This document shows positions 6,452 to 49,547 of a DNA stretch of 64,000 bases, piece after piece (positions within the stretch are counted from its first letter, which is position 1; each line of letters begins with the position of its first letter). The stretch is from positions 129,054-193,053 of the forward strand of contig JAPLCF010000036.1 of the NCBI GenBank assembly GCA_026392355.1. The letters run 5' to 3'. The position numbers and the translations under genes are program-made. The notes beneath the pieces are model-generated. The model saw nothing but the letters and a program-made list of their open reading frames with translations, did no database searches and was not told where the DNA came from. Source of the DNA: Actinomycetota bacterium. GTDB taxonomy: Bacteria > Actinomycetota > Thermoleophilia > Gaiellales > F1-60-MAGs149.

Positions 6452-6455
6452 GAGC

Positions 6456-13547: not shown

Positions 13548-15845
<2,298 letters not shown>

Positions 15846-15849
<4 letters not shown>

Positions 15850-17832: not shown

Positions 17833-17881
17833 CCATCTCCGCCTACGTATCAGTCGCAGGCGCGCCGGTTACGCTCCCGAC

Positions 17882-28000: not shown

Positions 28001-28014
28001 GGCAGGTCGGCCCG

Positions 28015-28644: not shown

Positions 28645-28699
28645 GCCCACAGGCAGGTACCTTGACCGCGCAGTCAGGATTATCGAGGAGAGGTTCCCC

Positions 28700-30022
28700 A
28701 TGCATGACGTCATCGTGATCGGCGCCGGCTTTGCCGGTTGCTCCGCGGCCCGCGAGGTACGTCGAGCCGGCAAGACGCCACTGCTCCTCGAGGCGCGCGA
28801 CCGCATTGGCGGCCGCACGTGGACCTCGGACTGGGATGGCCAGCGGTTCGAGCGCGGCGGTAACTACTTTCACTGGTTCCAGCCCCACCTCTGGACCGAG
28901 GTCATGGCCGCCGGCGTCACGCCGCTCGCGCCGCCCACCGGCGACCCCGTGCACTGGACCGTCAATGAGCAACTCCGTAGCGGCACCCGCGCCGAGCGCG
29001 AGGCCATCAACGAGTCTGCCTGGAACAAGTACAACGCGGGCTCGTGGGAGATCCTCCCCGAGCCGCACGCACCCCTGCGCCACCCCGACCGCATCGCCCG
29101 GCTCGACGCCATGACGATCCAGGAACGGATCGACGAGCTCGACCTGACCGACGATGAGCGCGCGCTCCTGATGGTGGAGTGCGAGGGCGTGGCGAGCGGA
29201 CACCTCAACGATGCCGGCGCCCTCTCGGTGATGCGCTGGCATGCGCTGTCTGGACACACGCTGGCTGGCACGCAAGAGGCTGCAGGCGGCTACACGATCG
29301 CCGAGGGCACGCTCGCCTTCCTGCAGCCGATCCTCGACGCCGCCGCCTGCGAGTTGCGACTCGAGGCGCCGATCGAGGCCATCGAGCAGGAGGACGACCG
29401 CGTCGTCGTCACGCTGCGGTCCGGCGAGGCGCTGGCAGCCCGCGCGTGCGTCGTGACTGTGCCGCTCAACGCGCTCGGGGCGATCCGCTTCGAGCCAGGC
29501 CTGTCAGAGGTGAAGCGGTCGGGCATTGCTCTCGGACAGGCGGGCATTGGCAGCAAGGTGATGCTCAAGGTGCGCACGTCCGGCGGCCCGGTCTCGGGCA
29601 TGCACCCGAATCACCCCTTCGGCTTCCTCGGCACGATCTTCGATCTGCCCGGCGACGAGCAGATCCTTGTGTGCTTCGGCCACGACGGTGACGAGATCGT
29701 CGATGGCGACCTCGCCTGGGCGCAGCGCGAGCTCGACCGGGCGATCCCCGGCTGCGAGGTGATCGGCATGAATTACCACGACTGGAAGTCCGATGAGTTC
29801 TCGCAGGGCACCTGGGGCGTGCACCGCCCAGGCTGGTACACGACCCACCACGCCGAGATGCAGCGCCCAGAGGGTCGCGTGATCCTCTCCAACTCCGACG
29901 CTGGGCAGGCTTCGTCGATGGGGCGATCGAGTCGGGCACGCACGGTGGCCGCTGGGCGGCCGCGCAGATGTAGTCCGAACCTTTTCCAGACCATAACCAG
30001 ACCAATTTGCAATTTGGTCTGA
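28700..30022 (+). CDS. Flavin-containing amine oxidase (MAO/putrescine oxidase-like) with an apparent C-terminal frameshift
   Basis: MHDVIVIGAGFAGCSAAREV...LEARDRIGGR N-terminus. After ...ILSNSD (about 29899) the conserved C-terminus WAGFVDGAIESGTHGGRWAAAQM* is encoded in another frame, ending at 29973. Confidence 0.7.
   Translation: MHDVIVIGAGFAGCSAAREVRRAGKTPLLLEARDRIGGRTWTSDWDGQRFERGGNYFHWFQPHLWTEVMAAGVTPLAPPTGDPVHWTVNEQLRSGTRAEREAINESAWNKYNAGSWEILPEPHAPLRHPDRIARLDAMTIQERIDELDLTDDERALLMVECEGVASGHLNDAGALSVMRWHALSGHTLAGTQEAAGGYTIAEGTLAFLQPILDAAACELRLEAPIEAIEQEDDRVVVTLRSGEALAARACVVTVPLNALGAIRFEPGLSEVKRSGIALGQAGIGSKVMLKVRTSGGPVSGMHPNHPFGFLGTIFDLPGDEQILVCFGHDGDEIVDGDLAWAQRELDRAIPGCEVIGMNYHDWKSDEFSQGTWGVHRPGWYTTHHAEMQRPEGRVILSNSDAGQASSMGRSSRARTVAAGRPRRCSPNLFQTITRPICNLV
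29986..30021. promoter_or_regulatory. Candidate HutC/GntR operator array: CCAGACCA-taa-CCAGACCA plus a 24-bp near-palindrome CAGACCAAtTTGCAAtTTGGTCTG
   Basis: AT-rich patch 40-75 nt upstream of the first BMC-operon gene. The palindrome pairs at 11 of 12 positions. The half-site resembles DasR/HutC-type TGGTCT/AGACCA boxes. Confidence 0.5.
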
Positions 30023-30061
30023 TATTCGGTACCTTCCGGTCCGTACCCTCGGAAGGCATCG

Positions 30062-31354
30062 ATGTACGACTACGGATTCTTCTCGTACGACTCGAAGGCG
30101 GACATGCTGGAGCGCTCCCGCGCGTTCTGGAATCCCGACAAGACCGACTTCTGGCAGGACGCCGGCATCGACCTCGTGATCGATCGCCGCGAGGGCTACT
30201 ACCTCTGGGACATGGCTGGCCGCCGCCTGATCGACGTGCACCTCAACGGCGGCACGTACAACCTCGGCCACCGCAACCCCGAGCTAATCGCCACGCTCGA
30301 GCAGGCCATGCAGCACTTCGACATGGGCAACCATCACTTCCCGTCGCTCGCGCGCACCGCACTGGCCGAGGCGCTCGTCAAGACGTGCGCCCCGAACATG
30401 CGCCGCGTGATCTACGGCGCCGCGGGCGGCGAGGCGATCGACATCGCGATCAAGACGGCGCGTCACACCAAGCAGCGTCGCAAGATCGTCTCGCTGATCA
30501 AGGCGTACCACGGCCACACCGGCCTCGCCGTCGGCACGGGTGACGACCGCTTCTCGAAGCTCTTCCTCGCAGACCACCCCGAGGAGTTCATCAACGTCCC
30601 GTTCAACGATCTCAACGCGATGGAAGACGCGCTCAAGGGCCGCGACGTCGCCGGCGTGTTGATCGAGTCGATTCCCGCGACGTACGGCTTCCCACTCCCC
30701 GAGCCCGGCTACCTCCAGGGCGTCAAGCGCCTCTGCGAGCAGTACGACACGCTCTACATCGCCGACGAAGTGCAGACCGGCCTGATGCGCACGGGCGAGA
30801 TGTGGTGCATCTCGAAGTCGGGCGTCGAGCCGGACATCATGGTCATCGGCAAGGGCATCTCCGGCGGCATGTACCCGCTCTCGTGCGTCGTCGTCTCCGA
30901 GGAGTGCTCGGCCTGGCTCAAGGAGGACGGCTTCGGCCACATCACCACGGTCGGCGGTTCGGAACTCGGCTGCATCGTCGGGATGAAGGTCCTCGAGATC
31001 TGCGGCCGGCCCGAGGTGCGCTCGATGGTGCACTACATGGCCGAGCGCTTCCAGCAGGGCCTGCGCCAGATCCAGGAGATCTACCCCGACTGGTTCGTCG
31101 GCATCCGCCAGGACGGCGTCGTGATTGGCCTCGAGTTCAACCATCCCACCGGCGCGAAGATCGTGATGAAGCATCTTTACGCGCACGGCATCTGGGCGAT
31201 CTTCTCCACGCTCGATCCGCGCGTCCTGCAGTACAAGCCCGGCATCCTGCTGAGCCCCGAGCTGGTCGACGAGATCCTCGACCGCACGGAGATCGCCATT
31301 GGCAAGGCCTACGCCGAGTGGAAGTCCATGTCGCGCCAGGCGGTGACGGCATGA
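30062..31354 (+). CDS. Class-III aminotransferase-fold PLP enzyme (candidate amino-alcohol O-phosphate phospho-lyase of the BMC pathway)
   Basis: 430 aa with DEVQTGLMRTG and the VIGKGISGG PLP-lysine region. First gene of the BMC operon, ATGA-coupled to the aldehyde dehydrogenase. Confidence 0.8.
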   Translation: MYDYGFFSYDSKADMLERSRAFWNPDKTDFWQDAGIDLVIDRREGYYLWDMAGRRLIDVHLNGGTYNLGHRNPELIATLEQAMQHFDMGNHHFPSLARTALAEALVKTCAPNMRRVIYGAAGGEAIDIAIKTARHTKQRRKIVSLIKAYHGHTGLAVGTGDDRFSKLFLADHPEEFINVPFNDLNAMEDALKGRDVAGVLIESIPATYGFPLPEPGYLQGVKRLCEQYDTLYIADEVQTGLMRTGEMWCISKSGVEPDIMVIGKGISGGMYPLSCVVVSEECSAWLKEDGFGHITTVGGSELGCIVGMKVLEICGRPEVRSMVHYMAERFQQGLRQIQEIYPDWFVGIRQDGVVIGLEFNHPTGAKIVMKHLYAHGIWAIFSTLDPRVLQYKPGILLSPELVDEILDRTEIAIGKAYAEWKSMSRQAVTA

Positions 31355-32877
31355 GCATGATCGAGCTGGAGCGCCGCGATCCTCCCGGGGCCGCCCGCGC
31401 CGCGATGATGCTGCAGCGCGCCCACTGGGCCGCCGAGACCTTCGCGCGCTATGACCGCACCCGCGTCGTGCGCATCCTTGACGCCGTCGCCGAGGCCGCC
31501 GAGGCCCACGCCGAGCGCTATGCCGAGGAGGCCGTTGCCGAGACCGGCATGGGCGTCGTCGAGCACAAGGTCCTTAAGAACCGCATGCTCTCACGCGGCC
31601 TCTGGGACCACTATCGCGATCACGATTTCGTGAGCCCGCGCATCGACCACGACGCCAAGATCCTCGAGCTGCCCCGCCCCGCCGGCGTGATCTTCGCGCT
31701 CACGCCCGTCACGAACCCCGTCGCCACCGTGTACTTCAAGGTGATGCTCGCCCTGATGACGCGCAACGCGATCGTCGTGAGCCCGCATCCCGGTGCCAAG
31801 CACGTCTGCGCCGACGCCGTCCGCATGCTGTCCGACGCCGCCGTCCGCGCCGGCGCCCCTGACGGCTGCATCCAGATTGTCGAAGAGCCCTCGATCCCGC
31901 TGATCGAGGCGCTGATGACCGACCCGACGACCGACGTCGTCGTGGCGACCGGCGGTGGCGCCGTCGTGCGCGCCGCGTATCGCTCGGGCAATCCCGCCCT
32001 CGGCGTGGGTCCTGGCAACGTGCCCTCGTTCGTCGACGCCACGGCCGACATCGCTGCGGCCGCGCGGCACATCATCGACTCCAAGTCGTTCGACCACTCC
32101 ATCCTCTGCACCAACGAGTCGGTCGTGATCGTCGAAGAGGAGGTCGCCGACCAGCTCGAGCGCGAGCTGCGCAAGCACGGCGGCCACATCGTCGACGCCA
32201 GCGAGGTTGAGCAGGTGCGCGAGCACCTCTTCCCCAACGGCCACATGCGCCTCGACCTGATCGGCAAGAGCGCACTCGAGCTGGCCGAGGCCGCGCAGCT
32301 GAAGGTGCCCGCGAACACGCGCGTGCTGATCGCACCGTTCTCGCTCGTCGTCCCCGAGGAGCCGCTGGCGCACGAGAAGCTGTTCCCGCTGCTGGGCCTC
32401 GTCCGCGTGCCCAATACGCGCGCCGGCATCTCGGCCGCCCAGGCGATGCTGCGCATCACCGGCGCCGGCCACTCGGCCTCGATCCACTCGCGCAGCGCAC
32501 GGACGATCATGGCCTACGGCGCCGCGGTCAAGGTCCTGCGCGTGTCGGTCAACGTCGGCAACAGCCTCGGCTCGGCCGGCGCACTGACGAACCTCTCGCC
32601 CACGATGACGATCGGCACCGGCTTCTACGGCCGCTCGTCGGTTGGCGAGAACCTCGAGCCGCGCCACCTGATCAACCTGATGCGCGTCGCGTACAACGCC
32701 GACGCCTCCGTGCCCTTCGACGACTTCACCGGCCTTGAGCCGTGGGTCCTCGAGGCGGCCGCCACACCCATCGCCGCGCCCGTCGAGCACGCGCCGGCCG
32801 CACCCGAAACCGACCTGCTGCGCGAGGAGATCCGCAAGGTGATCCTCGAGGAGCTCAAGGAGCTGACCCGTCAGTGA
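31351..32877 (+). CDS. CoA-acylating aldehyde dehydrogenase (PduP/EutE-like) with C-terminal encapsulation-peptide-like helix
   Basis: Start is at Met184 of track ORF 30802..32877. The catalytic region has FDHSILCTNE. The tail is an Ala/Pro linker plus the amphipathic DLLREEIRKVILEELKELTRQ. Confidence 0.85.
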   Translation: MSMIELERRDPPGAARAAMMLQRAHWAAETFARYDRTRVVRILDAVAEAAEAHAERYAEEAVAETGMGVVEHKVLKNRMLSRGLWDHYRDHDFVSPRIDHDAKILELPRPAGVIFALTPVTNPVATVYFKVMLALMTRNAIVVSPHPGAKHVCADAVRMLSDAAVRAGAPDGCIQIVEEPSIPLIEALMTDPTTDVVVATGGGAVVRAAYRSGNPALGVGPGNVPSFVDATADIAAAARHIIDSKSFDHSILCTNESVVIVEEEVADQLERELRKHGGHIVDASEVEQVREHLFPNGHMRLDLIGKSALELAEAAQLKVPANTRVLIAPFSLVVPEEPLAHEKLFPLLGLVRVPNTRAGISAAQAMLRITGAGHSASIHSRSARTIMAYGAAVKVLRVSVNVGNSLGSAGALTNLSPTMTIGTGFYGRSSVGENLEPRHLINLMRVAYNADASVPFDDFTGLEPWVLEAAATPIAAPVEHAPAAPETDLLREEIRKVILEELKELTRQ

Positions 32878-33494
32878 GTAACGCAACCGCCGTCGAGCTC
32901 CGCTCCTGCATCTACCTCGATCAGCTGCAGCCGCAGACCATGTGTTACCTCGGCTCCTGGATCAAGGGCCGCCTGCCGCGCGCCGGCATGGCCGCCCAGA
33001 TCATCGAGGTCGCACCGGGTCTCGACATCGAGGCACTCACCGACGTCGCGCTCAAGCACGACCGCGTCGAGGCCGGCATCCTGTTCGTCGAGCGCACCTT
33101 CGGCTACCTCGAGATGCACTCGCTCTCGCCCGCCGCCGTCAAGTCGGCCACCAGCGCCGTGCTCGACGCGCTCGACCTGTCGGGTCGCGACTCGATCAAG
33201 CCGAAGATCCTGGCCAAGAAGGTCATCTCGCGCGTCGACGGCCAGCACGCCTTCCTGATCAACCGCAACAAGATCGGCTCGATGCTCCTGCCGGGTGAGT
33301 CGCTGTTCGTACTCGAATGCCAGCCCGCCTCGTACGCGATCCTCGCGACGAACGAGGCCGAGAAGGCCGCCGACATCAAGGTGATCGACTACCGCATGAT
33401 CGGCGCCACCGGCCGCGTCTACCTGTCCGGCGAGGAGGCCAACGTCCGCGCTGCGGGCGAGGCCGCCGTCGCAGCGCTGGAGGCAATCGCGTGA
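32874..33494 (+). CDS. BMC shell protein, tandem BMC-domain (BMC-T-like), paralog 1
   Basis: 206 aa with a GTGA-coupled start. Two BMC-like halves are visible (AAQIIEVAPGLDIEALTDVALK... and SLFVLECQPASYAILATNEAEKAADIKVI...GRVYLSGEEANVRAAGEAA). Confidence 0.7.
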   Translation: MSNATAVELRSCIYLDQLQPQTMCYLGSWIKGRLPRAGMAAQIIEVAPGLDIEALTDVALKHDRVEAGILFVERTFGYLEMHSLSPAAVKSATSAVLDALDLSGRDSIKPKILAKKVISRVDGQHAFLINRNKIGSMLLPGESLFVLECQPASYAILATNEAEKAADIKVIDYRMIGATGRVYLSGEEANVRAAGEAAVAALEAIA

Positions 33495-34060
33495 GCGAAG
33501 CCCCCGTCAACGAGAGCACCGAGATGCACGCGGCGCTGAAGACTGCGCTTGCCGAGCTCCTGCCCGACATGCTGCGCGAGCATCAGGCGGCTCCGGTCGC
33601 CCAGGTGCCTGCACCGCCCGTCGCGCAGACGCTGCGCCCGAGCACCTGGCACCCGTCGCAGCAGGCGCCCGATCCGGCGGGCAACGCCGCTCCCGCCCCC
33701 GCTGCCGCACCGGCCGCCGGGGGCGCCGTCGAGCAGGTGCGTCTCAAGGACGACCGCGACCTCGACACGTTCGTGCGCTCGCTGGCACGCCGCCTCGAGC
33801 ACCCGGCCGAGCGCGCCGCGATTGCCGCGGGCCACATCCGCTTCACCATGACGGGCCACGGCACACCTGCCGCCGCGCCTGCACCCGCCACGAGCGGTAC
33901 CGAGCGCATCGAGCGCGGTGCCGTCACCGAGCGCATCATCGAGCGCGCCGCCGAAAACGGTGGCGTCCTCGTGCTCGGCCCCAAGGCCGTGCTCACGCCG
34001 ATGGGCAAAGATCGCGCCCGCGCACTCGGCGTCCAGATCCAGAGGGAGGCAGCATGCTGA
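33491..34060 (+). CDS. BMC-associated hypothetical protein (N-terminal amphipathic helix, Pro/Ala linker, small C-terminal domain)
   Basis: 189 aa. GTGA-coupled upstream, and its end overlaps the BMC-P start by 7 nt. Contains MHAALKTALAELLPDMLRE, then a P/A-rich stretch, then ...GAVTERIIERAAENGGVLVLGPKAVLTPMGKDRARALGVQI. Confidence 0.6.
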   Translation: MSEAPVNESTEMHAALKTALAELLPDMLREHQAAPVAQVPAPPVAQTLRPSTWHPSQQAPDPAGNAAPAPAAAPAAGGAVEQVRLKDDRDLDTFVRSLARRLEHPAERAAIAAGHIRFTMTGHGTPAAAPAPATSGTERIERGAVTERIIERAAENGGVLVLGPKAVLTPMGKDRARALGVQIQREAAC

Positions 34061-34293
34061 AAGGCACCGTGACCGGATCCGTGTGGTCGACCAAGCGCGT
34101 CGACGATATGCCACACGGAGCGTTTCTTGAGGTAGAGCTCGAAGGCGGCGCCTCGATCGTCGCGTTCGACATTCTCGGCTCGGGGGTCGGCGAGCGGGTC
34201 CTCGTCGCCACCGGCTCTGTCGCCGCCGCGCGGTTTGCGCCGGCCCACCCGCCGATCGATGCACTGATCGTCGGCCTGATCGACCAGTCCTAG
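34054..34293 (+). CDS. BMC vertex pentamer protein (BMC-P; EutN/CcmL/PduN family)
   Basis: 79 aa: MLKGTVTGSVWSTKRV...VAFDILGSGVGERVLVATGSVAA...IDALIVGLID matches the EutN/CcmL pattern. Confidence 0.85.
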   Translation: MLKGTVTGSVWSTKRVDDMPHGAFLEVELEGGASIVAFDILGSGVGERVLVATGSVAAARFAPAHPPIDALIVGLIDQS

Positions 34294-34341
34294 ACCCACA
34301 TTCATCACGCACGTCCAGTTCGAGATCCAAGGAGGGATCAC

Positions 34342-34617
34342 ATGTCTGAAGCACTCGGAATGATCGAGACCAAGGGGTACGTCGCCGCACTCGCCGCCGC
34401 GGACGCCATGGTCAAGGCCGCCAACGTGACCATCGTCGGTCGCGAGGAGGTCGGTGACGGGCTCGTCGCCGTCGTCATCCAGGGCGACGTCGGTGCCGTC
34501 AAGGCTGCCACGGAGGCCGGCTCGGAGACCGCTGCAACGGTCGGCGAGCTCGTGTCCGCGCACGTCATCCCGCGCCCGCACGCCGAGCTCGGCAAGCACT
34601 TCACGGCCGGCAAGTAA
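34342..34617 (+). CDS. BMC shell hexamer protein (BMC-H; PduA/EutM/CcmK-like)
   Basis: 91 aa: [31 protein letters not shown]...[13 protein letters not shown] is the canonical BMC domain. AAGGAGGG RBS lies upstream. Confidence 0.95.
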
Positions 34618-34627
34618 GGAGCACCCG

Positions 34628-35272
34628 ATGGCCGGACCGGATATCGAACTGCGCGTCTACCTCCCCATCCCCGAGCTGCGTCGGCAGTTCGCGGCCTACA
34701 TGGGGACGCCGACGCGCGCTCGTGGCTACCCGCCGATGGAGGGCGAGCACGCTCTCATCGTCGAGGTCGCTCCCGGTCTGGCCATCGAGCGCGTTATCGA
34801 CCTCGCGCTCAAGGCCGTGCCTGAGGTCGAGCCCGGCATCCTCTTCGTGGAGCGCCAGTTCGGCGTCCTCGAGCTGCATGCCAAGGACGCGGAGACGGTT
34901 GAGCGCGCCGGTGCGGCGATTCTCGCCGGCATCAACGCCGAGCCGTCGCATCAGCTGAAGCCCCGCATCCTCTACTCGGATGTGATCGAGGACATCACCG
35001 ATCAGCACGCGGTGATCGTCAACCGCAACCGCCAGGCCTCGATGGTCCTGCCGGGCGAGTCGCTGCTCGTCTACGAGATGGCACCCGCACTGTTCGCAGC
35101 CATGGCAGCCAACGAGGCCGAGCGCGTCGCCCCGGACGTCACGGTCGTCGATATCGCGATGATCGGTGCGACCGGTCGCATCTACATGAGCGGCAAGACC
35201 GAGAGCGTCCTCAAGGCCCGCGACGAGATCACGCGCGTACTTGAGGCCGTCGTCGGCCGCGACCACGGATAG
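34628..35272 (+). CDS. BMC shell protein, tandem BMC-domain (BMC-T-like), paralog 2
   Basis: 214 aa, colinear with the 32874..33494 product (IELRVYLP...ALIVEVAPGLAIERVIDLALK...SLLVYEMAPALFAAMAANEAERVAPDV...GRIYMSGKTESVLKARDEI). AAGGAG RBS. Confidence 0.7.
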   Translation: MAGPDIELRVYLPIPELRRQFAAYMGTPTRARGYPPMEGEHALIVEVAPGLAIERVIDLALKAVPEVEPGILFVERQFGVLELHAKDAETVERAGAAILAGINAEPSHQLKPRILYSDVIEDITDQHAVIVNRNRQASMVLPGESLLVYEMAPALFAAMAANEAERVAPDVTVVDIAMIGATGRIYMSGKTESVLKARDEITRVLEAVVGRDHG

Positions 35273-35273
35273 G

Positions 35274-35370
35274 TGCTCCGAAGGGGTCAGACCCTTTTGG
35301 AGCATCGCATCATTGCGGTCTATTTCAGCGTCGTCCGGATGCTCCAAAAGGGTCTGACCCCTTCGGAGCA
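35274..35370. repeat. MITE/REP-like palindromic element, copy A (perfect 33-bp arms, 31-nt spacer)
   Basis: TGCTCCGAAGGGGTCAGACCCTTTTGGAGCATC ... GATGCTCCAAAAGGGTCTGACCCCTTCGGAGCA. It begins 1 nt after the BMC-T2 stop codon and is related to the element at 57877..57980. Confidence 0.75.
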
Positions 35371-35371
35371 T

Positions 35372-35391
35372 CGGTCTGGTCGAACAGACCG
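35372..35391. promoter_or_regulatory. Second GGTCTG/CAGACC palindrome: CGGTCTG-gtcgaa-CAGACCG
   Basis: 7-bp perfect inverted arms 40 nt upstream of the kinase gene. It shares the half-site with the 29986..30021 array. Confidence 0.4.
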
Positions 35392-35431
35392 GATACCCAT
35401 ATACTCCTGCCCCTGAGGAGAGGTGGAGCCC

Positions 35432-36424
35432 ATGGCAGAGGTCGTGGATCAAGACGAGGTTGATCGCTTGGCGCAGGCCGCGCTTGCGCACTACGACGTG
35501 TCGCCGGGTTGCACCCTGCAGCTGATCAACCTGTCCGAGAACTGGACGTATCGCGTCGAGGATCCCGACTCTGGCACGACCTATGCCCTGCGCGTGCACC
35601 GTACGGGGTACCACACGCCCGCGGAAATCGCCTCCGAGCTGCTGTGGATCGACGCGCTCCAGCAGGATGACGTCGTCGGCACGGTTACCCCGCTGCCTGC
35701 GCGCTCCGGCGAGCGCGTGATCCAGATGGCGACGGAGACCCTGCCCGAGCGGAGCGTCGTGCTGTTCGCATGGGAGGAAGGCGCGCCGCCCGACCCCGAT
35801 GCCGACCTGATCCCGGTCTACCGCACGCTCGGCGCGATCAGCGCTGGCATGCACGAACACGCCCGCGGCTGGCAGCAGCCTGCGGCGTTTACCCGCTTCA
35901 GCTGGGACTTCGACACCGCGCTCGGCCCGCAGGGCCACTGGGGCCCGTGGCAGGACGCCGTCGGCCTCGACGACGAGAAGCGCGACCTCTTCCAGCGCAC
36001 GGTCGACGTCGTCGATCAACGCCTGCAGGCCTACGGCAAGGGGCCCGAGCGCTATGGCCTGATCCATGCCGACATGCGCCCCGCCAACGTGTTGGTGCTC
36101 GGCGACGACGTTCGGGCCATCGATTTCGACGACTGCGGCGCCGGCTGGTTCATGTACGACTTCGCGACCACGATCTCGTTCATCGAAGAGCACCCGATGG
36201 TGCCGGAGTGGCGCGCGTCGTGGCTCGAGGGCTATCGCTCGGCCGGCACGCTCAGCGCGAAGGACGAGGCCGAGCTCGACACCTTCGTGATGCTGCGCCG
36301 CATGATGCTGCTCTGCTGGGTCGGCTCGCATTACGCCCATGCCATCGAGGCGCAGGAACTCGGCGCCGATTTCACGCTCGCCACGTGTCCGCTTGCGGAG
36401 ACGTATCTCTCGCACTACGCCTGA
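35432..36424 (+). CDS. Aminoglycoside-phosphotransferase-fold kinase (candidate 1-amino-2-propanol kinase)
   Basis: Catalytic loop GLIHADMRPANVL and IDFDD metal-binding motif. ATG 35432 is preferred over GTG 35423 because of the spacing to the GAGGAG RBS. Confidence 0.8.
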   Translation: MAEVVDQDEVDRLAQAALAHYDVSPGCTLQLINLSENWTYRVEDPDSGTTYALRVHRTGYHTPAEIASELLWIDALQQDDVVGTVTPLPARSGERVIQMATETLPERSVVLFAWEEGAPPDPDADLIPVYRTLGAISAGMHEHARGWQQPAAFTRFSWDFDTALGPQGHWGPWQDAVGLDDEKRDLFQRTVDVVDQRLQAYGKGPERYGLIHADMRPANVLVLGDDVRAIDFDDCGAGWFMYDFATTISFIEEHPMVPEWRASWLEGYRSAGTLSAKDEAELDTFVMLRRMMLLCWVGSHYAHAIEAQELGADFTLATCPLAETYLSHYA

Positions 36425-36440
36425 CCAGGAGGTCACCACC

Positions 36441-37220
36441 ATGAGCAAGATGTTCAACTCCCTCGAGGGCCGCAGCGTCCTCGTCACCGGCGGCACCAAG
36501 GGCATTGGCCTCGGCATCGCCCGCGTCTTCGCCGATGCCGGCTGCAAGGTCACCGTCGCCGGTCGTGATGAGGCCACGGGCGCAGCCGCTGTCGAGTCGC
36601 TCGGCGCGAACGCGTCGTTCGTCAAGGGCGACGTCAGCCGCGCAGCCGACTGCAAGCGCATCGTCGAAGAGACCGTCGCGCTGCAGGGAGGCCTCGACGT
36701 GCTCTGCGCCAACGCCGGCATCTTCCCCGAGTGCCGCCTCGAGGAGATGACCGAGGAGGCGCTCGACCTGATGCTCGACACGAACCTCAAGGGCAACATC
36801 CTCTCCGTCGCGCATGCCATTCCCGCGCTCGCGAAGTCGGGCCACGGCCGCATCATCCTGACGTCGTCGATCACCGGTCCGTTCACGGCGATCCCCGCGC
36901 TGTCGCACTACGGCGCGTCGAAGGCCGGCCAACTGGGCTTCATGCGCGGTGCTGCGATGGAGCTCGCGCCCAAGAAGATCACGATCAACGCGGTGCTGCC
37001 GGGCAACATCCTGACCGAGGGTCTGGTTGGGCTCGGCGAGGACTACCTGCGCACGGCGGCCGAGTCGATCCCGCTGGGCAAGCTCGGCGACCTCGAGGAC
37101 ATCGGCTACGCCGCGATGTTCCTCGCCACCGACGAGGCCAAGTTCATCACCGGCCAGACGATTGTCGTCGACGGCGGCCAGACGCTGCCCGAGGCGCCGT
37201 CGGCCATGGAGGCGATCTGA
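36441..37220 (+). CDS. Short-chain dehydrogenase/reductase (candidate amino-propanol/aminoacetone dehydrogenase)
   Basis: TGGTKGIG cofactor motif, NAG, and the catalytic YGASK. AGGAGG RBS lies upstream. Confidence 0.85.
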   Translation: MSKMFNSLEGRSVLVTGGTKGIGLGIARVFADAGCKVTVAGRDEATGAAAVESLGANASFVKGDVSRAADCKRIVEETVALQGGLDVLCANAGIFPECRLEEMTEEALDLMLDTNLKGNILSVAHAIPALAKSGHGRIILTSSITGPFTAIPALSHYGASKAGQLGFMRGAAMELAPKKITINAVLPGNILTEGLVGLGEDYLRTAAESIPLGKLGDLEDIGYAAMFLATDEAKFITGQTIVVDGGQTLPEAPSAMEAI

Positions 37221-37282
37221 GCACAACCACGCCAACGGGCGATAAGGGTGCCGCCGGGCAACTCGGCCCGGCCGGCATCGGC

Positions 37283-38020
37283 GTGCGCGATCGGATCCTG
37301 AGCGAGATCGCCAGTGGTGCGCTCGCACCCGGTGAGCGCCTCGGTGGCGAGCGCGATCTCGCCGAGCACTACGGCGTCAGTCGCTCCACGCTGCGTGCCG
37401 CGCTGGGCGCACTCGAGACGATGGGCGCCGTGCGCCGACAGTCGGGCCGCACCGGTGGCACGTTCGTTGCCGCCCGCAAGGTCGAGCGCGACCTGCGCAG
37501 CATGGCCGGCCTGCCGTCGTATCTCCGACGCCAGGGCTTCTCGGCTGATGCCCGCGTGCTGTCGACCGCCACGATCGAAGCCGATGCCGAGACGGCCGCA
37601 GCGCTCGACGTTGCGGTCGGTGCGCTCGTGCTCGAGATCGTGCGCGTGCGTCTTGCCGACGGCGAGCCGATCTCCTACGAGCGCGCGCGCTTCCCCGCCG
37701 CGCGCTTCGCCGGCATGCTCGACCACGGCCTCGGCGGCTCGCTCTACGAGTTGCTGCAGAGCGAGTTCGACGTGAAGCCCGGCGAGGCAATGGAGCAGAT
37801 CGAGATCGTCGGCGCCGGCTCGGCCGAGGCGAAAGTGCTCGAGGTCAAGCGCTCCACGCCACTGGTCGCAATCATCCGCACCGCCTGGGACCGCGACGGC
37901 CGCCCGTTTGAGCACTCGCACGACCTGTTCCGCTCCGACCGCGTACGCATCGTCGTGCGCACGCCCGCCGGCGAATCGGCCGCCCGTGGCGTGGCGAGCA
38001 CGATCGAGGTCGTGGCATGA
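37283..38020 (+). CDS. GntR family regulator, HutC subfamily (UTRA effector domain)
   Basis: HTH ERDLAEHYGVSRSTLRAALGALETMGAVRRQSGRGTF-like segment followed by a UTRA-like domain. Start is GTG at Val185 of the track ORF. CTG 37217, overlapping the SDR stop, is an alternative. Confidence 0.75.
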   Translation: MRDRILSEIASGALAPGERLGGERDLAEHYGVSRSTLRAALGALETMGAVRRQSGRTGGTFVAARKVERDLRSMAGLPSYLRRQGFSADARVLSTATIEADAETAAALDVAVGALVLEIVRVRLADGEPISYERARFPAARFAGMLDHGLGGSLYELLQSEFDVKPGEAMEQIEIVGAGSAEAKVLEVKRSTPLVAIIRTAWDRDGRPFEHSHDLFRSDRVRIVVRTPAGESAARGVASTIEVVA

Positions 38021-38958
38021 CCGAGCACCGCATCTCCCGCGACCTGCCCACGCACCGTCGCTGGGACGTGGATGTCCCCCCGGTCGTGATGGCGCAACCT
38101 GGCGACGTGATCGTCGCCGAGACCGACGACTTCGCCGCGGGCCAGATCACCCGCGACTCGCCGGCCTCCGCGCTGCTCGAGGTCGACTTCGACCTGATCT
38201 ACCCGCTGGCCGGCCCGATCCACGTCGAAGGTGCCGAGCCGGGCGACGCACTGGCGATCGAGATCCTCGGCTTCGAACTGCCCGACTGGGGCTGGTCGTG
38301 CATCATCCCCGGCTTCGGCCTGCTGCCGCCCGGCGAGTTTCCCGACCCCGTCCTGCGCATCTTCGACCTGACGGACGGCGACACAACGCAGCTCTGTCCG
38401 GGCGTGCGCATTCCGATCGAGCCGTTCTGCGGCACGATGGGCGTCCCCGGCCCGGGCATGAGGGACGCGCCGATTCCGCCGCCCCATGCCGGTGGCGGCA
38501 ACGTCGATTGTCGACACCTGACCGCTGGCACCACGCTCTACCTTCCCGTCGGTGCCCCGGGCGGTCTGTTCTCGCTGGGTGATGCTCACGCTGCACAGGG
38601 CGATGGCGAGGTTGCGATCGCCGGTATCGAGTGCGCGATGACCACCCGCATTCGGGTCGATGTCGTCAAGGGCATGGATATCCCCGCGCCCCAGCTGCGC
38701 CGGCCAGCGGGCTCCCTGACACCGCGAGTCGACCACGCCGGCTGGTTCGCGACGACCGGTGTCGAGACCGATCTGATGGAGGGTGCCCGCAGTGCCGTGC
38801 GGGCGATGATCGACCATCTCGTGCGCGAGCGCGGGCTGTCGCGCGAGGACGCCTACATCCTTTGCGCGCTGGCCGGCGACCTCAAGATCACCGAGGTGGT
38901 CGATGCGCCGATGTGGATGGTCGGGTGCTTCATGCCCGACGCCGTCTTCACCGGATAG
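38017..38958 (+). CDS. Acetamidase/formamidase family (FmdA/AmdA) amidase
   Basis: 313 aa with LAGPIHVEGAEPGD...GGNVDCRHL...LFSLGDAHAAQGDGE, as in the FmdA_AmdA family. The ATG overlaps the regulator stop (ATGA). Confidence 0.8.
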   Translation: MTEHRISRDLPTHRRWDVDVPPVVMAQPGDVIVAETDDFAAGQITRDSPASALLEVDFDLIYPLAGPIHVEGAEPGDALAIEILGFELPDWGWSCIIPGFGLLPPGEFPDPVLRIFDLTDGDTTQLCPGVRIPIEPFCGTMGVPGPGMRDAPIPPPHAGGGNVDCRHLTAGTTLYLPVGAPGGLFSLGDAHAAQGDGEVAIAGIECAMTTRIRVDVVKGMDIPAPQLRRPAGSLTPRVDHAGWFATTGVETDLMEGARSAVRAMIDHLVRERGLSREDAYILCALAGDLKITEVVDAPMWMVGCFMPDAVFTG

Positions 38959-39060
38959 GCGTTCTGACAATACCCGCGGATTGAGGGTTCAAAACCGCCA
39001 CTTTTTCTGGTTCAATCCCGTCAGAGAACGTGGCATTTGCCACGGGGAGAAGGAGGATTT

Positions 39061-40593
39061 ATGACCGACCACCACGGAGTGGGTGTCGGGCGTCAGGGGA
39101 CGATCGAGACGGTCTCGATCTCCGACACGGACGCCGGCCGACTCAAGCCCGGGGCCATCGGCCTGATGGGCGTCATCTTCGTCGCCGTCACGGGAGCCGC
39201 GCCGATCTCGGCCATGCTCTTCAACGTGCCGTTCGCGACGGGCTTCGGCACCGGCTACTACACACCGGCTGCCTTTCTCTTTGCCGCCGTCGTGCTGACG
39301 ATCTTCTCGGTCGGCTACGTCGCGATGGCGAAGGAGATCAGCGCTGCTGGCGGCTTCTACTCGTTCATCTCGCACGGCCTCGGCCAGGCCCTCGGCCTCG
39401 CCACGGGCATCTGCGGTGCCGTCGCCTACGCCCTCTTCGAGGTGTCGCTGCTCGGCGGTTTCTCGTACTTCTTCTCGACGAACTTCAATTCATGGTTCGG
39501 CTGGGAGATTCCGTGGATCCTGCCCGCGGTGGTTGCCGCAGTCTTGATTGCCGTGCTCTGCTGGTTCGACGTTGAGCTGTCGGTCAAGGTGCTTGGTGTC
39601 GCGCTCATCAGCGAGATCATCATCCTCGTCATCTTCGACGTGCTGGTCTTCGGCCAGGGTGGCAGCGACACGGGCATTGCGTACGACTCGATCAACGTGT
39701 TCAAGCTGACCGATCCGGGCGTCGGCCTGGCCGCCGGCGTCGGCGTCTTCTTGGCGTTCTGGTCGTGGGTCGGCTTCGAGGCGATCCCGAACTACGCGGA
39801 GGAGTCGAAGGACCCGAAGCGCAACGTCGTACGCGCCACGATGATCTCCGTGATCGGGCTCGGCGTCGGCTACGTGATCACCGCGGTCGCGTTCGAGTCG
39901 GCCTTCCCGAAGGACCAGGTTGTCGAGGCGGCACAGGATCCGGCTGGTCCGTTCTTCGTCGCCATGGAGGCCTTCGGCACGCCCTGGCTGGCGACGATCA
40001 TGCAGATCCTGATCCTGACCGGCGCGTTCGCCTGCGCCATGGCCTTCCACAACGTCGCGATGCGGTACTTCTACGCGATGGGCCGTGAGGGCATCCTGCC
40101 CTCGAAGCTCGGCAGCACGCACCCCAAGCACAAGGTGCCGCACGTCGCCAACATCACGGCGCTCGTCGTGGCGCTCGTGATCATGCTGATCTGGGGCATC
40201 TTCTCGGGCTTCGGCTTCGGCGAGGCCTTCGACACCGCGTACGTCCGCATCTACACGATGATGGCCGTGCAGGGCGTGGTCTGGATCCTCGCGATTCAGG
40301 CGCTGTGTGCCGTCGCGATCATCGTGTGGTTCCGCAAGGACGGTCGCAAGGGCAACCCGCTCACCACGATCATCTGCCCGATTCTCGCGATCGTCGGCCA
40401 GGTGTTCGCGATCTTCCTGCTCTTCAAGAACATCGACACGCTCGCCGGCACGATCTCGTACGTGCAGGCGATCGCGCCGATCGCCGTGATCCTCGTGATC
40501 GTGGCGCTCGTCTACGCCTTCGTGCTCCGCAGCACGAACCGCGAGAAGTTCGACCGCATCGGCCGCGTCATCGACGACACGGGCGACCTGTAG
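39061..40593 (+). CDS. APC-superfamily amino acid/amine permease
   Basis: 510-aa polytopic protein. ATG at Met9 of the track ORF is preceded by AGGAGGA. Confidence 0.8.
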   Translation: MTDHHGVGVGRQGTIETVSISDTDAGRLKPGAIGLMGVIFVAVTGAAPISAMLFNVPFATGFGTGYYTPAAFLFAAVVLTIFSVGYVAMAKEISAAGGFYSFISHGLGQALGLATGICGAVAYALFEVSLLGGFSYFFSTNFNSWFGWEIPWILPAVVAAVLIAVLCWFDVELSVKVLGVALISEIIILVIFDVLVFGQGGSDTGIAYDSINVFKLTDPGVGLAAGVGVFLAFWSWVGFEAIPNYAEESKDPKRNVVRATMISVIGLGVGYVITAVAFESAFPKDQVVEAAQDPAGPFFVAMEAFGTPWLATIMQILILTGAFACAMAFHNVAMRYFYAMGREGILPSKLGSTHPKHKVPHVANITALVVALVIMLIWGIFSGFGFGEAFDTAYVRIYTMMAVQGVVWILAIQALCAVAIIVWFRKDGRKGNPLTTIICPILAIVGQVFAIFLLFKNIDTLAGTISYVQAIAPIAVILVIVALVYAFVLRSTNREKFDRIGRVIDDTGDL

Positions 40594-40603
40594 GCCAACC
40601 CAC

Positions 40604-40631
40604 GGGGTCCGCTCCTTCGGGGGCGGGCCCC
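40604..40631. terminator. GC-rich hairpin between convergent permease and FAD oxidase genes
   Basis: GGGGTCCGC-tccttcgggg-GCGGGCCCC with one wobble/mismatch, located 11 nt after the permease stop. Confidence 0.4.
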
Positions 40632-40644
40632 GATCCCTACCGGG

Positions 40645-41979
40645 CTACTGCGTCTTGGCGATGGCGGCGGCCTGCCGCGCGGTCCACACCGACGTCTCCG
40701 CGTACCACGTGCCGAGGTAATCGCCTGCGAGATGGATACGCCCAAGCGGCTCCATCAGCGCGGGCTGGATGCGGCTGCGCCCGACGAACGGGTACGGGAT
40801 GCCCGGGTCGACGCGGTGCAGCAGACGCTCGACGACATGGCCCTTCAGCTCGGGCAGCGTGTCCTCGAGGTCGCGCTGGAAGAGATCGAGAATCGCCTCA
40901 TCCGAGTCGCCGACAATGCGCCGTGCGAGGTTGGCCGTGGCGTACGTCATGAAGCTCGATCCCTTCACGCGCTTGGGCATCAGGACGTTACCCATGTTGA
41001 AGAGCATCGACGTCGCGCGGTCCGGTGTCGCGATCGCGTAGATGTCGTCCCAGCGCCGGGGGCCGTCCTCATCCGTGAGGAACGCGGCGGAGATCATCGG
41101 GCCGTAGGTAATCGCGCGCAGGGCGGCATCCGTCGCGGCGGGCAGACCCTCGACGATCTCTGCGGTCACGTGCGATGGCGCGGTGACGATCGCAGCCTTG
41201 GCGCGCAGGGTTCGGCGCGTGCCGTTGTCGTCGCACTCGACCGTCACGCCGTCGGCGTCTTGTGCCACGCACGTCACGTTGACACCAAACCGGATGCGGT
41301 CGCCGTGCGGGGCAGCCAGGCCATCGATCAGCGTCTGCGGCCCACCGACAATGTTGCGGCCGAGGCCGTCCTCCTGATTCCACGCCAGGTGGAAGTAGCC
41401 GACGCCATAGCCGGCCGCGATCTGCTCGGGCTCGCCCGTGCCACGCGTGAGCGTGCAGCGAAAGAACGCGTCGACCTCGGGCTGTAGTACCCCGAGCTTC
41501 TGCGTGAACGACTGGTCGTCCATGAAGTCGAGCATGCGCTGCTGCAGCGCGGCGGGCTCCTCGCCCGGGCGCGGCTTCGCCATCTCGCCATACTCGGCGA
41601 CGAGCTTCCGCAGCTTCAGGCCGGTGCGCACGAACGACGCGCGGCCACCCAGCGAGATCGGCAGCTTGAACGGATACAGCTCGAGCGGCCCCTCGGCCAC
41701 CAGCTTGCCCTTGTACGAGACGCCCGTCAGCACGCCAGGGATGTCGCGCGGCTCGGCACCGACCTCGTGCATCAGCGTGCCCGCCGCAGAGTTGTCGCCG
41801 GCGTAGACGTGCGCGCCGAGATTGAGCCACAGATCGCCACGCGCCTCGGAGCGAATGCGGCCCCCAACGCGGTTGGCACGCTCGAGCACCACGACGTCGC
41901 GATCGCGCAGATCCCACGCGGCGCTGAGCCCGGCGATGCCGGCGCCGATCACGATGACATCGTGCTGCTCCGGCTCCAT
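40645..41979 (-). CDS. FAD-dependent amine oxidase-like oxidoreductase (paralog A)
   Basis: [18 protein letters not shown]...LERANRVGGR N-terminus, 444 aa. Colinear with the 42926..44284 product. Confidence 0.75.
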   Translation of the reverse strand: MEPEQHDVIVIGAGIAGLSAAWDLRDRDVVVLERANRVGGRIRSEARGDLWLNLGAHVYAGDNSAAGTLMHEVGAEPRDIPGVLTGVSYKGKLVAEGPLELYPFKLPISLGGRASFVRTGLKLRKLVAEYGEMAKPRPGEEPAALQQRMLDFMDDQSFTQKLGVLQPEVDAFFRCTLTRGTGEPEQIAAGYGVGYFHLAWNQEDGLGRNIVGGPQTLIDGLAAPHGDRIRFGVNVTCVAQDADGVTVECDDNGTRRTLRAKAAIVTAPSHVTAEIVEGLPAATDAALRAITYGPMISAAFLTDEDGPRRWDDIYAIATPDRATSMLFNMGNVLMPKRVKGSSFMTYATANLARRIVGDSDEAILDLFQRDLEDTLPELKGHVVERLLHRVDPGIPYPFVGRSRIQPALMEPLGRIHLAGDYLGTWYAETSVWTARQAAAIAKTQ

Positions 41980-41999
41980 GTGGAGAGCCTAGCGCCGCG

Positions 42000-42929
42000 C
42001 TACGGTCGCAGCGCGGCGGCGATCGCCGAGACGCCCGCGGGCGTGACGCCACAGCAGCCGCCGATCAACGTTGCACCGGCCGCAGTCCAGGAGCGCACGG
42101 TGTCAGCCGGGAAGCCGCCGGCGCCACCAACGGCCCACTCGCGCGCCATGCCGTCCCAGACGCGACCGTCGTTCGGATAGACGATCACGGCGAGCTCGGG
42201 TGCCGCGGTGCGACAGCGTTCGATCAGCTCGAGCACGTGCTCGGGGGCCGTGCAGTTGCAGCCGACCGCGCGGATGCCCGGGGCGTCCTTGATGCGCGCG
42301 ATGGCGTCCTCGATGGGCGAGCCGTCGGCGATGTGCCCGCCATCACGGCACTGGAACGAGACCCACGCGGCAGGACCCGCGAACTCATCCTGCAGGCGCG
42401 CAATCGCGTCGGCCTCGAGCAGGTTCGGGATCGTCTCCCACGCGAGCACGTCGGGGCCGGGGCCGAGCAGGGCGGCCACACGCGGGCGGTGGAAGCGAAC
42501 GATCTCCTCGACGCCGGCGCCCTCGTAGTCGCCCGTGTACTCCTGGCCGTTCGCCATCATCGCGCCGTACGGGCCGAGCGAGGCGGCGACGAGCGTGAAC
42601 GGCGCGTCGGGCTGCTCGCGCTCGAACGAGACGCGCGCTGCCTGCGCGAGCGTGACGCTCGTGGCGATCAGGCGATCGGCATCAGCGGCGGGAATGCCGG
42701 CCGTCGCGAAGGTCTCTTGGCTGGCCTGGTACGACGCGGTGATGGAAACGCGCGCGCCGGCCCGCAGGTAGTTGAGGTGCACGGCCTCGACCGCGGCGGG
42801 GCCATCCTCGAGCAGGCGCGCCGACCAGAGATCGCTCGACAGGTCGTAGTCCAGCGCCTCGAGCTCGGTCGCGAAGCCACCGTCGATCGTGACGGGACCC
42901 TCGTTGATCAGGTCATCGATCGCGCTCAT
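42000..42929 (-). CDS. mmuM: Homocysteine S-methyltransferase
   Basis: 309 aa with C-terminal zinc-ligand motifs VGCNC and GGCCG. Start is at Met24 of the track ORF, overlapping the upstream stop (ATGA). Confidence 0.85.
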   Translation of the reverse strand: MSAIDDLINEGPVTIDGGFATELEALDYDLSSDLWSARLLEDGPAAVEAVHLNYLRAGARVSITASYQASQETFATAGIPAADADRLIATSVTLAQAARVSFEREQPDAPFTLVAASLGPYGAMMANGQEYTGDYEGAGVEEIVRFHRPRVAALLGPGPDVLAWETIPNLLEADAIARLQDEFAGPAAWVSFQCRDGGHIADGSPIEDAIARIKDAPGIRAVGCNCTAPEHVLELIERCRTAAPELAVIVYPNDGRVWDGMAREWAVGGAGGFPADTVRSWTAAGATLIGGCCGVTPAGVSAIAAALRP

Positions 42930-44284: not shown

Positions 44285-44356
44285 GGCACGATGCTACCCG
44301 TTCCCGACAGGCGATCGGCCCATCGGTGGAACGCCGTAGACTTCCCGGGACCGAAG

Positions 44357-45916: not shown

Positions 45917-45918
45917 TC

Positions 45919-48257: not shown

Positions 48258-48323
48258 GACATTTTAGATCCGGATCCGATTTGTCCCTCAGCGGGACAGA
48301 ATGGATCCGGATCCAGAATGTCC
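48257..48323. terminator. Long imperfect hairpin between convergent genes, containing GGATCCGGATCC
   Basis: GGACATTTTAGATCCGGATCCGATTTGTCCC-tcagc-GGGACAGAATGGATCCGGATCCAGAATGTCC. About 26 of 31 positions pair. Each end touches a stop codon. Confidence 0.45.
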
Positions 48324-49456: not shown

Positions 49457-49547
49457 CGGGCGCTCCTCGCGAGGGGCGCGTCACTCGCGCCAATGGCGGC
49501 AGCATATCGGGCACCCCGCGTCCTGAGCGTGACGCCCGACTGCGCGT

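Follow-up and report, generated by a model that had tools for sequence, protein, structure and literature searches.

A probable RMM1/AAUM1-type metabolosome operon in an uncultured Thermoleophilia/Gaiellales-like actinobacterium, and a possible relative of PduM encoded within it

Which type of bacterial microcompartment (BMC) is encoded between positions 30062 and 40593 of a 64-kb stretch of actinobacterial DNA (contig JAPLCF010000036.1; the whole 64-kb stretch analysed is called the window below), and does it depart from the types already catalogued? The first-pass annotation of the window placed the locus with the Rhodococcus/Mycobacterium microcompartment (RMM), also called the aminoacetone-utilisation microcompartment (AAUM). 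The region is very probably a complete metabolosome operon of the RMM1/AAUM1 type, belonging to an uncultured Thermoleophilia/Gaiellales-like actinobacterium and carrying a pathway of the Mycobacterium smegmatis kind. It is assigned to this type because its shell proteins, its kinase and its short-chain dehydrogenase/reductase (SDR) match M. smegmatis proteins (E 1e-28 to 1e-93), and because its genes stand in the same order. The locus is thus a further member of an already catalogued BMC type, not a new system. A second question concerns a 189-aa protein encoded in the midst of the shell genes, which may be a remote homologue of PduM.

The G+C content of the window is approximately 68% and uniform along its length. 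Twelve co-directional open reading frames (ORFs) fill the operon, with the high third-position G+C of real genes, and all of them are intact, full length and furnished with coupled start and stop codons. In order, they are:

30062–31354, + strand: class-III aminotransferase-fold enzyme (AT), dependent on pyridoxal phosphate (PLP) and equivalent to msmeg_0277 (Pfam Aminotran_3, PF00202, 2e-69; position)
31351–32877, + strand: CoA-acylating aldehyde dehydrogenase (AldDH), equivalent to msmeg_0276 (Pfam Aldedh, PF00171, 1e-24; NCBIfam)
32874–33494, + strand: tandem-domain shell protein (BMC-Tdp), MSM0275-like (PDB 5L39, MSM0275, 5e-85; also CcmP and CsoS1D; Pfam BMC 2e-7)
33491–34060, + strand: conserved 189-aa protein in the position of msmeg_0274 (212 homologues; location between Tdp and BMC-P)
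34054–34293, + strand: BMC-P pentamer (vertex) protein (Pfam EutN_CcmL 1e-18; MSM0273, 5L37, 7e-28)
34342–34617, + strand: BMC-H hexamer protein (Pfam BMC 2e-27; MSM0272, 5L38, 2e-40)
34628–35272, + strand: second BMC-Tdp, MSM0271-like (PDB 5SUH, MSM0271, 5e-93; also CcmP and CsoS1D; NCBIfam CcmP 2e-55)
35432–36424, + strand: APH-fold kinase, orthologue of the M. smegmatis (S)-1-amino-2-propanol kinase (PDB 6EF6 2e-91, more exactly 2.3e-91; Pfam APH 9e-22)
36441–37220, + strand: SDR, orthologue of the M. smegmatis 1-amino-2-propanol dehydrogenase, msmeg_0269 (PDB 6CI8/6CI9 5e-90; Pfam adh_short_C2 7e-56)
37283–38020, + strand: GntR-family regulator of the HutC subfamily, with a winged helix-turn-helix and a UTRA domain (Pfam GntR 1e-14 and UTRA 1e-37)
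38017–38958, + strand: FmdA/AmdA-family amidase (Pfam FmdA_AmdA 7e-51; PDB acetamidase 2II1 8e-45)
39061–40593, + strand: APC-superfamily amino-acid permease, with the function of msmeg_0279 (Pfam AA_permease_2 6e-35)

Much of this had been anticipated. The first-pass annotation described eleven co-directional genes; the shared direction holds, but the count does not, the 189-aa gene at 33491–34060 having gone undescribed. Its chain of overlaps through the first five genes was measured again at the same junctions: AT and AldDH overlap by ATGA (−4), AldDH and the first Tdp by GTGA (−4), that Tdp and the 189-aa gene again by GTGA (−4), and the 189-aa gene and BMC-P by 7 nt. Further along, the GntR and FmdA amidase genes overlap by ATGA. 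The enzymes it had named—an AT-fold enzyme, an acylating AldDH with a C-terminal tail, an APH kinase and an SDR—were all found by Pfam, the kinase and SDR with orthologues in the PDB, and its HutC regulator and APC permease are borne out by the GntR, UTRA and AA_permease_2 matches. The shell set it had drawn up, of one BMC-H, one BMC-P and two tandem-domain proteins, likewise agrees with the Pfam and PDB matches to MSM0272, MSM0273, MSM0275 and MSM0271.

For each of the four shell proteins the best natural match in the PDB is its M. smegmatis RMM counterpart, and for BMC-P the MSM0273 structure (5L37) is the sole PDB match below 1e-8. The translation of BMC-H shows the KAAN and PRPH interface motifs. 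The earlier assignment had hung on BMC or EutN profile matches among the ORFs at 32874–35272, and such matches were found; the second Tdp (34628–35272) has none in the Pfam copy used, but it matches MSM0271 at 5e-93, and the precomputed annotation of a sequence collection gives it PF27545 (CsoS1D_N). The resulting inventory, with two different BMC-Tdp proteins beside a single BMC-H and a single BMC-P, is that of the published RMM1 definition (Sutter 2021).

With the first Tdp protein as query, relatives of the locus were sought in a single genome for each GTDB species, which gave more than 513 confirmed relatives; all counts out of 80 below refer to the best 80 of these, and names such as L001 are labels of fetched loci. 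The closest relatives, 96–72% identical in the first Tdp, are metagenome-assembled genomes labelled Thermoleophilia, Gaiellales, Actinomycetota or Solirubrobacteraceae, from lake, river and estuary projects, while Mycobacteriales (Gordonia) appear only at 69% identity. Homologues of the 189-aa protein are likewise labelled Gaiellales/Thermoleophilia. The host belongs to a Thermoleophilia/Gaiellales-like lineage of fresh water and is neither Rhodococcus nor Mycobacterium. An identical AT protein is indexed in 315 blocks of public assemblies and an identical Tdp in 142, so that the lineage is common. The ten-gene core AT-AldDH-Tdp-x-P-H-Tdp-kinase-SDR-GntR is present in exact order in 41 of the 80 loci, the rest being mostly truncated contigs or proteobacterial loci with an RMM2-like order.

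In the published catalogue, RMM1/AAUM1 has one BMC-H, one BMC-P and two different BMC-Tdp proteins, and 140 loci are recorded from Actinobacteria and Proteobacteria (Sutter 2021 supplement); the BMC-Tdp tree file of 2021 holds no Thermoleophilia genus names (Sutter 2021). Supplementary Data 6 of that study gives msmeg_0277 as the aminotransferase, 0276 as the AldDH, 0275 and 0271 as the Tdp proteins, 0273 as P, 0272 as H, 0269 as the SDR and 0279 as the permease. When synteny was compared through this gene-number table and the names of the PDB entries, the order was the same; the components are orthologous to the M. smegmatis parts and run as msmeg_0277 to msmeg_0269, in keeping with the RMM/AAUM type first proposed. 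The window and the M. smegmatis RMM1/AAUM1 locus (msmeg_0269 to msmeg_0279) therefore share the shell inventory, orthologous kinase and SDR, and gene order through GntR, and neither has a phosphotransacylase (PTAC) or an alcohol dehydrogenase. The ancillary genes reported for RMM1 are a phosphotransferase, an SDR, a permease, a GntR regulator and hydrolases, with PTAC and alcohol dehydrogenase missing (Axen 2014). The two loci differ in four respects. The host class of the window is Thermoleophilia rather than Mycobacteriales; its permease gene lies downstream in the operon's own direction, unlike the 25 of 80 loci that have it upstream and divergent; its operon includes an FmdA-family amidase; and a palindrome resembling repetitive extragenic palindromic (REP) elements parts its shell block from its kinase/SDR block. 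Of the 80 loci, 38 encode a permease; its gene is divergent and lies upstream of AT in 25 of them, and 9 have it downstream in the same direction as the operon.

Two further systems mark the limits of the type. The proteobacterial RMM2/AAUM2 loci have the same gene set, diverged copies of the 189-aa protein included, but in a different order, such as SDR-kinase-AT-AldDH-Tdp-..-P-H-Tdp, whereas the window has the RMM1 order. The ethanolamine utilisation (EUT) metabolosome uses the B12-dependent ammonia-lyase EutBC together with PTAC and an alcohol dehydrogenase, and its AldDH carries an encapsulation peptide. It too converts an amino alcohol to an aldehyde within a BMC shell, where the aldehyde is trapped by the acylating AldDH; the proposal for the window differs in relying on a kinase and a PLP phospho-lyase, without EutBC, PTAC or iron-dependent alcohol dehydrogenase (Fe-ADH). 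A Pfam scan of approximately 55 window ORFs, with a few short ORFs outside the scan, found no diol dehydratase, EutBC, glycyl-radical enzyme, RuBisCO, PTAC or Fe-ADH, and the absence of the first four had already been remarked upon.

What might the organelle do? Under the M. smegmatis model for the aminoacetone/1-amino-2-propanol route, reportedly set out by Mallette and Kimber in 2018 with the phospho-lyase step included, the permease would import aminoacetone or 1-amino-2-propanol. The SDR would interconvert the two, reducing aminoacetone with NADH to (S)-1-amino-2-propanol, and the kinase would produce 1-amino-2-propanol O-phosphate. Inside the shell the PLP enzyme, acting as a phospho-lyase, would release propionaldehyde, ammonium and phosphate. 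The AldDH would then trap propionaldehyde as propionyl-CoA, and its NADH would be re-oxidised by the SDR; such cycling of NADH between AldDH and SDR would explain why an alcohol dehydrogenase is not needed. These steps are inferred from the M. smegmatis model, while the window itself provides the orthology of kinase and dehydrogenase and the intact catalytic motifs. Speculatively, the FmdA-family amidase that this lineage co-translates with the regulator may free the substrate amine by cleaving an N-acyl precursor. We take PDB 6EF6 to be the M. smegmatis (S)-1-amino-2-propanol kinase and 6CI8/6CI9 to be the M. smegmatis 1-amino-2-propanol dehydrogenase. The translation of the kinase keeps its HxDxxxxN and DFD motifs, and its start is more likely the ATG at 35432, giving 330 aa as called in the relatives L085 and L086. 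In the SDR the YxxxK and TGxxxGxG motifs are intact.

In NCBIfam the AldDH matches the AdhE N-terminal domain (7e-133) and acetylating acetaldehyde dehydrogenase (4e-116), neither of which reaches the equivalog cut-off, and its translation carries the catalytic-Cys motif SFDxSILCxxE. Its C-terminus ends in the following element, which is preceded by a Pro/Ala linker and was recognised by conservation of the tail:

32812–32874, + strand: encapsulation-peptide-like amphipathic helix DLLREEIRKVILEELKELTRQ at the C-terminus of AldDH

The motif LREEIRrlIxEEL closes all 16 of the actinobacterial and proteobacterial RMM AldDHs inspected, always after a variable linker, and the conserved tail is as would be expected for an encapsulation peptide.

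Four observations weigh against this account. The nearest named families of the AT by sequence are transaminases (PigE, ArgD and putrescine aminotransferase). Between the kinase and SDR of the window and those of Gordonia (L051), the Mycobacteriales representative, identity is approximately 46–57%, so that substrate range could differ. Termini resembling an encapsulation helix were seen only on the AldDH and the 189-aa protein. Finally, the recycling of CoA is unexplained across RMM loci (Axen 2014).

The first alternative keeps the machinery and changes the feedstock. In this freshwater lineage the physiological feedstock might be something other than free aminoacetone: a different small amino alcohol, or an amine masked by N-acylation or in some other way, which the amidase would unmask and the neighbouring oxidases of the MAO family would process. 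We consider this unlikely. What gives it substance is the amidase gene, which is coupled translationally to the regulator gene (ATGA) and followed by the permease gene. The nearest solved relatives of the amidase are acetamidases and formamidases. Orthologues with 74–87% identity lie in the same position in L001, L003, L030, L035 and L036. A second, distant FmdA/AmdA subfamily (29–34% identity; Pfam 3e-25 and 3e-23) is encoded next to the divergent permease, or to the regulator, in approximately ten Nocardioides-type RMM1 loci (L013, L015, L016, L018, L026, L032, L033, L055, L072, L075 and L076). Altogether FmdA-family genes occur in 15–16 of the 80 loci, in two arrangements, and such an amidase is a recurrent accessory gene and no peculiarity of this locus. 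The published catalogue for RMM1 lists only alpha/beta hydrolases (Abhydrolase_3) and no FmdA (Axen 2014; Sutter 2021).

The oxidases speak for the masked feedstock in that three MAO-family genes flank the locus and are conserved in its nearest relatives. Nevertheless, most of the 80 RMM1 loci have neither amidase nor oxidases, and sequence cannot yield a substrate. In the window, moreover, the upstream oxidase carries a frameshift, and a promoter/operator-like region of the operon's own stands between it and the first operon gene. This oxidase is:

28700–30022, + strand: MAO-family flavin amine oxidase, frameshifted at its 3' end (Pfam Amino_oxidase)

Its best PDB relatives are pseudooxynicotine and nicotine amine oxidases and MAO-N (2e-63 to 1e-50). 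Compared with five relatives it has a 10-nt deletion near 29919, which replaces the conserved C-terminal GWAGFVDGA(I/L)ESG with 40 unrelated residues. In L081–L084, close relatives on contigs with an identical AT, two intact tandem oxidase paralogues (427 and 426 aa) stand upstream, whereas the window has one, damaged. The ancestral stop of this oxidase lay near 29966, leaving a true intergenic region of approximately 93 nt before AT. The oxidase was considered as a first operon gene on account of an apparent gap of 39 nt, and rejected: the end of its ORF is a frameshift artefact, and the gap of approximately 93 nt holds a promoter/operator-like palindrome. The oxidase is a lineage-specific neighbour and probably lies outside the BMC transcription unit. 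The first-pass annotation had set apart a formamidase, an amine oxidase and a palindrome as extra parts of the locus. All three are present, but they are not special to it, as the amidase recurs, the oxidase is a frameshifted neighbour and the palindrome has a second copy in the window.

Two observations on the surroundings of these oxidases may be added. On the minus strand at 40645–44284, two flavin amine oxidases with 62% mutual identity flank a homocysteine S-methyltransferase that passes its NCBIfam equivalog cut-off; of the fetched loci, L001 and L005 alone share this trio as a neighbour of the BMC locus. Upstream, a 209-aa ORF with two CxxC pairs (28015–28644, + strand) has no Pfam or NCBIfam match, and a 209-aa gene occupies the same place upstream of the oxidases in L081–L084.

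The second alternative keeps the organelle and changes its chemistry. The AT would be a true transaminase converting aminoacetone to methylglyoxal, which the AldDH would detoxify to pyruvyl-CoA. This was the original proposal for the type (Axen 2014), and it agrees with the transaminase kinship of the AT noted above; the assignment of the AT as a phospho-lyase, which comes from the model system and from context, is the weakest link of the mechanism. The AT itself, which has its PLP lysine in translation, is 64–97% identical across RMM loci, with the AldDH gene always adjacent. A transaminase would, however, leave the kinase without a role, and the kinase is kept beside the SDR or with the AT in essentially every complete RMM locus, even where the proteobacterial order is shuffled. 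The kinase is, moreover, orthologous to a characterised 1-amino-2-propanol kinase. It is also weakly similar to the NCBIfam models PRK06149 and PRK06148 (972–1015 positions; named aminotransferase or hypothetical protein), which we take to be fusions of a kinase with a class-III aminotransferase; read in this way, the similarity fits a kinase/phospho-lyase pair. Lyase chemistry is favoured for the AT because the kinase is invariably co-conserved with it and because the kinase resembles these long models named aminotransferase. The propionyl-CoA route has been adopted for RMM in the later literature. We therefore hold the methylglyoxal route to be very unlikely, and the AT is presumed to be the 1-amino-2-propanol O-phosphate phospho-lyase.

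In a genome that carries pseudogenes, the locus could also be a remnant in decay or without function, or a product of chimeric assembly, but this is extremely improbable. Lesions are present in two neighbouring genes, a 10-nt deletion in the amine oxidase and, in argG, an in-frame stop with a deletion of approximately 33 codons. The 12 operon ORFs, however, all run their full length with coupled overlaps and high third-position G+C, the operon proteins are 82–97% identical to those of L001, and the identical AT and Tdp proteins in 315 and 142 public assembly blocks point to purifying selection in an abundant population.

With the RMM1/AAUM1 assignment retained, the 189-aa protein is the part of the operon that lacks an annotation. 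It has no sequence match in Pfam, NCBIfam or the PDB, and a Foldseek search of the PDB found nothing; each of its 212 detected homologues is called 'hypothetical'. In each RMM locus examined, whether RMM1 or RMM2, its gene nevertheless stands between those for Tdp and BMC-P; the proteobacterial copies are diverged, and tblastn had missed them. In the family alignment the N-terminal helix is amphipathic (LRxVTREVLAELLP) and similar to the AldDH tail, the motif VPQVPAPPV does not vary, Pro/Ala linkers are present, two small domains are conserved, and the C-terminal motif is GxxLVLxPxAVLTP(L/M)ARDRARxLG. In the AlphaFold2 model a helix spans residues 7–32 and small alpha/beta domains occupy 79–121 and 137–185, with predicted local distance difference test (pLDDT) scores of 80–91.

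This C-terminal motif prompted a comparison with PduM. A Citrobacter-like PduM sequence, which matches PF15953 (PDU_like) at 1.2e-47 as a positive control, was used to retrieve real PduM proteins. When the RMM family (alignment A3) was compared with PduM (A2) by hhalign, 41 C-terminal columns aligned at 24% identity, with a probability of 72% and an E-value of 3.4e-5. For 200 column-shuffled PduM alignments the score is 12.1 ± 2.3 (maximum 23.2), whereas the real pair scores 36.5, approximately 11 standard deviations above the shuffles. At relaxed stringency the alignment of the two is collinear from the N-terminal helix to the C-terminus. The AlphaFold2 model of PduM (pLDDT 91) has an N-terminal helix at residues 4–21, and its C-terminal order of strand-helix-strand-helix-strand is that of the 189-aa protein. 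Both proteins are small and specific to BMC loci, and both are predicted to begin with an amphipathic signal-like helix and to end in a beta-alpha-beta-alpha-beta unit, which has the motif LVL-x4-V(L/V)T(P/A)LA(R)D-x-A. In the Pdu operon pduM directly precedes pduN, and in both systems the gene lies directly upstream of the vertex (BMC-P) gene.

The two proteins also differ. Long Pro/Ala-rich linkers and the invariant VPQVPAPPV belong to the RMM protein and not to PduM, and confidence in the alignment is confined to the 41 or so C-terminal columns. The Pfam family PF15953 misses the RMM protein, matching none of 32 members of the 189-aa family even at E 0.1, and the latter thus falls outside Pfam's definition. 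A study of 2025 states that no homologues of PduM are known outside Pdu microcompartments (PMC12108088). The same study describes an N-terminal signal sequence and localisation of PduM to the core, and its loss partly separates core from shell (PMC12108088). Taken together, these comparisons raise the possibility, which we put forward tentatively and a little short of an even balance, that the 189-aa protein is a remote PduM homologue with a similar role in tethering core to shell. Encoded just before the vertex gene, it would tether cargo to the shell as PduM does.

How the operon might be controlled is suggested by its upstream region. The operon is taken to start at 30062. The regulator has NCBIfam matches of the PhnF/HutC-like kind, all under the cut-off, and a candidate binding site for it was picked out by its form, CAGACC-N12-GGTCTG, and by conservation:

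29998–30021, no strand: palindrome CAGACCAATTTGCAATTTGGTCTG, putative HutC/GntR operator

The palindrome overlaps a promoter-like TTGCAA-17 nt-TACCTT and lies 41 nt upstream of the AT gene; a sigma-70 consensus scan of 27900–41000 gave no promoter-like site. It is the sole match to CAGACC-N(0–20)-GGTCTG in the 64 kb. L001–L005 keep it upstream of their AT genes, and motifs related to GGTCT/AGACC are present upstream of AT in most actinobacterial loci. From this conservation, CAGACCAATTTGCAATTTGGTCTG is probably the operator of the HutC-type regulator, overlapping the promoter. The regulator would bind CAGACC-N12-GGTCTG, and repression would be relieved by the amino alcohol.

A second and larger palindrome lies within the operon, directly behind the shell genes:

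35272–35372, no strand: nested perfect palindrome of 101 nt (35-bp arms at 35272–35306 and 35338–35372; loop of 31 nt)

Each arm is itself a hairpin, around GGGGTCAGACCC, and a small hairpin (35373–35390) follows directly. Folded as RNA, the palindrome has a minimum free energy of −100.8 kcal/mol (z = −10.7). The same architecture recurs 22 kb away in a second copy at 57877–57981, between unrelated convergent ORFs; just downstream of this copy, a 1313-aa ORF with fused hydantoinase/oxoprolinase A and B domains occupies 58748–62689 (+ strand). In L003–L005 the site of the palindrome holds only a 36-nt spacer, in L001 it holds a simpler hairpin with the same core, and related hairpins with a GGGGTCAGACCCC core occur in L001, L027 and L030. 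Copies of the repeat in relatives are:

L085, 2152–2258
L086, 2152–2258
L001, approximately 8510–8560 and approximately 15180–15215
L027, upstream of the AT gene

These copies share the core GGGGTC(A/T)GACCCC, with substitutions in one arm mirrored in the other and loops that diverge. On the contigs L085 and L086, which are 92–95% identical to the window, the palindrome is kept with coordinated substitutions in its arms. Across four copies, both partners differ in 11 of 40 pairs, and the main stem contains no broken pair, which shows that the arms co-vary; with four related copies, structural selection and concerted evolution of inverted repeats would look alike. An Rfam scan of the window gave no match, the palindrome included, and a search of metagenome contigs for exact copies of the arm consensus gave 0 hits. 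The element at 35272–35372 belongs to a dispersed palindromic repeat family of the kind of REP elements or miniature inverted-repeat transposable elements, with copies at several sites. A BMC-specific regulatory element was rejected as its primary reading, given the second copy between unrelated convergent genes. REP elements do occur inside operons and affect mRNA, and by analogy the palindrome may make the upstream shell/AldDH part of the message more stable than the kinase/SDR/regulator part, or may act as an attenuator. Its core GGTC(A/T)GACC also resembles the operator-like motifs found upstream of AT in other lineages.

The remaining genes of the window touch the operon less closely. Downstream, 44291–49480 holds a carboxyltransferase, an enoyl-CoA hydratase with matches of the gamma-carboxygeranoyl/methylglutaconyl type, a biotin carboxylase/biotin carboxyl carrier protein and a divergent acyl-CoA dehydrogenase. 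The cluster looks like a methylcrotonyl/geranyl-CoA-type (leucine/terpenoid) carboxylase cluster rather than a propionyl-CoA carboxylase. Its acyl-CoA carboxylase genes (44291–48257) were considered as a sink for propionyl-CoA and not used as such, since their hits are of the leucine/terpenoid type and reach no equivalog cut-off. Argininosuccinate synthase (13548–14987, − strand) is split by an in-frame stop (GDGST*FVDELGG) and is either a pseudogene or an assembly error; presumably some 33 codons are missing, as judged against E. coli-type ArgG. At 5252–12924, F420 genes (CofD, an F420 ligase and a fused 809-aa radical-SAM CofG/H-like protein) lie amid three luciferase-like monooxygenases and a PNPOx-like protein, and three EamA-family transporter genes stand in a row at 14869–17868 (− strand). 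A tRNA scan of the window found nothing.

For the RMM1 type, the extension to a Thermoleophilia/Gaiellales-like lineage is real, modest and somewhat unexpected, and it leaves knowledge of the type itself unchanged. The conserved operator/promoter candidate for the HutC-type regulator could be a useful by-product for BMC specialists, and the recurrent accessory amidases of the FmdA family hint at how the poorly defined natural substrate may reach the organelle. For the sole conserved RMM gene that lacks an annotation, PduM-like tethering provides a testable candidate function. If this kinship is real, a signal helix joined to a C-terminal beta-alpha-beta module and encoded beside the pentamer gene would be an ancient core-to-shell linker of distant metabolosome types.

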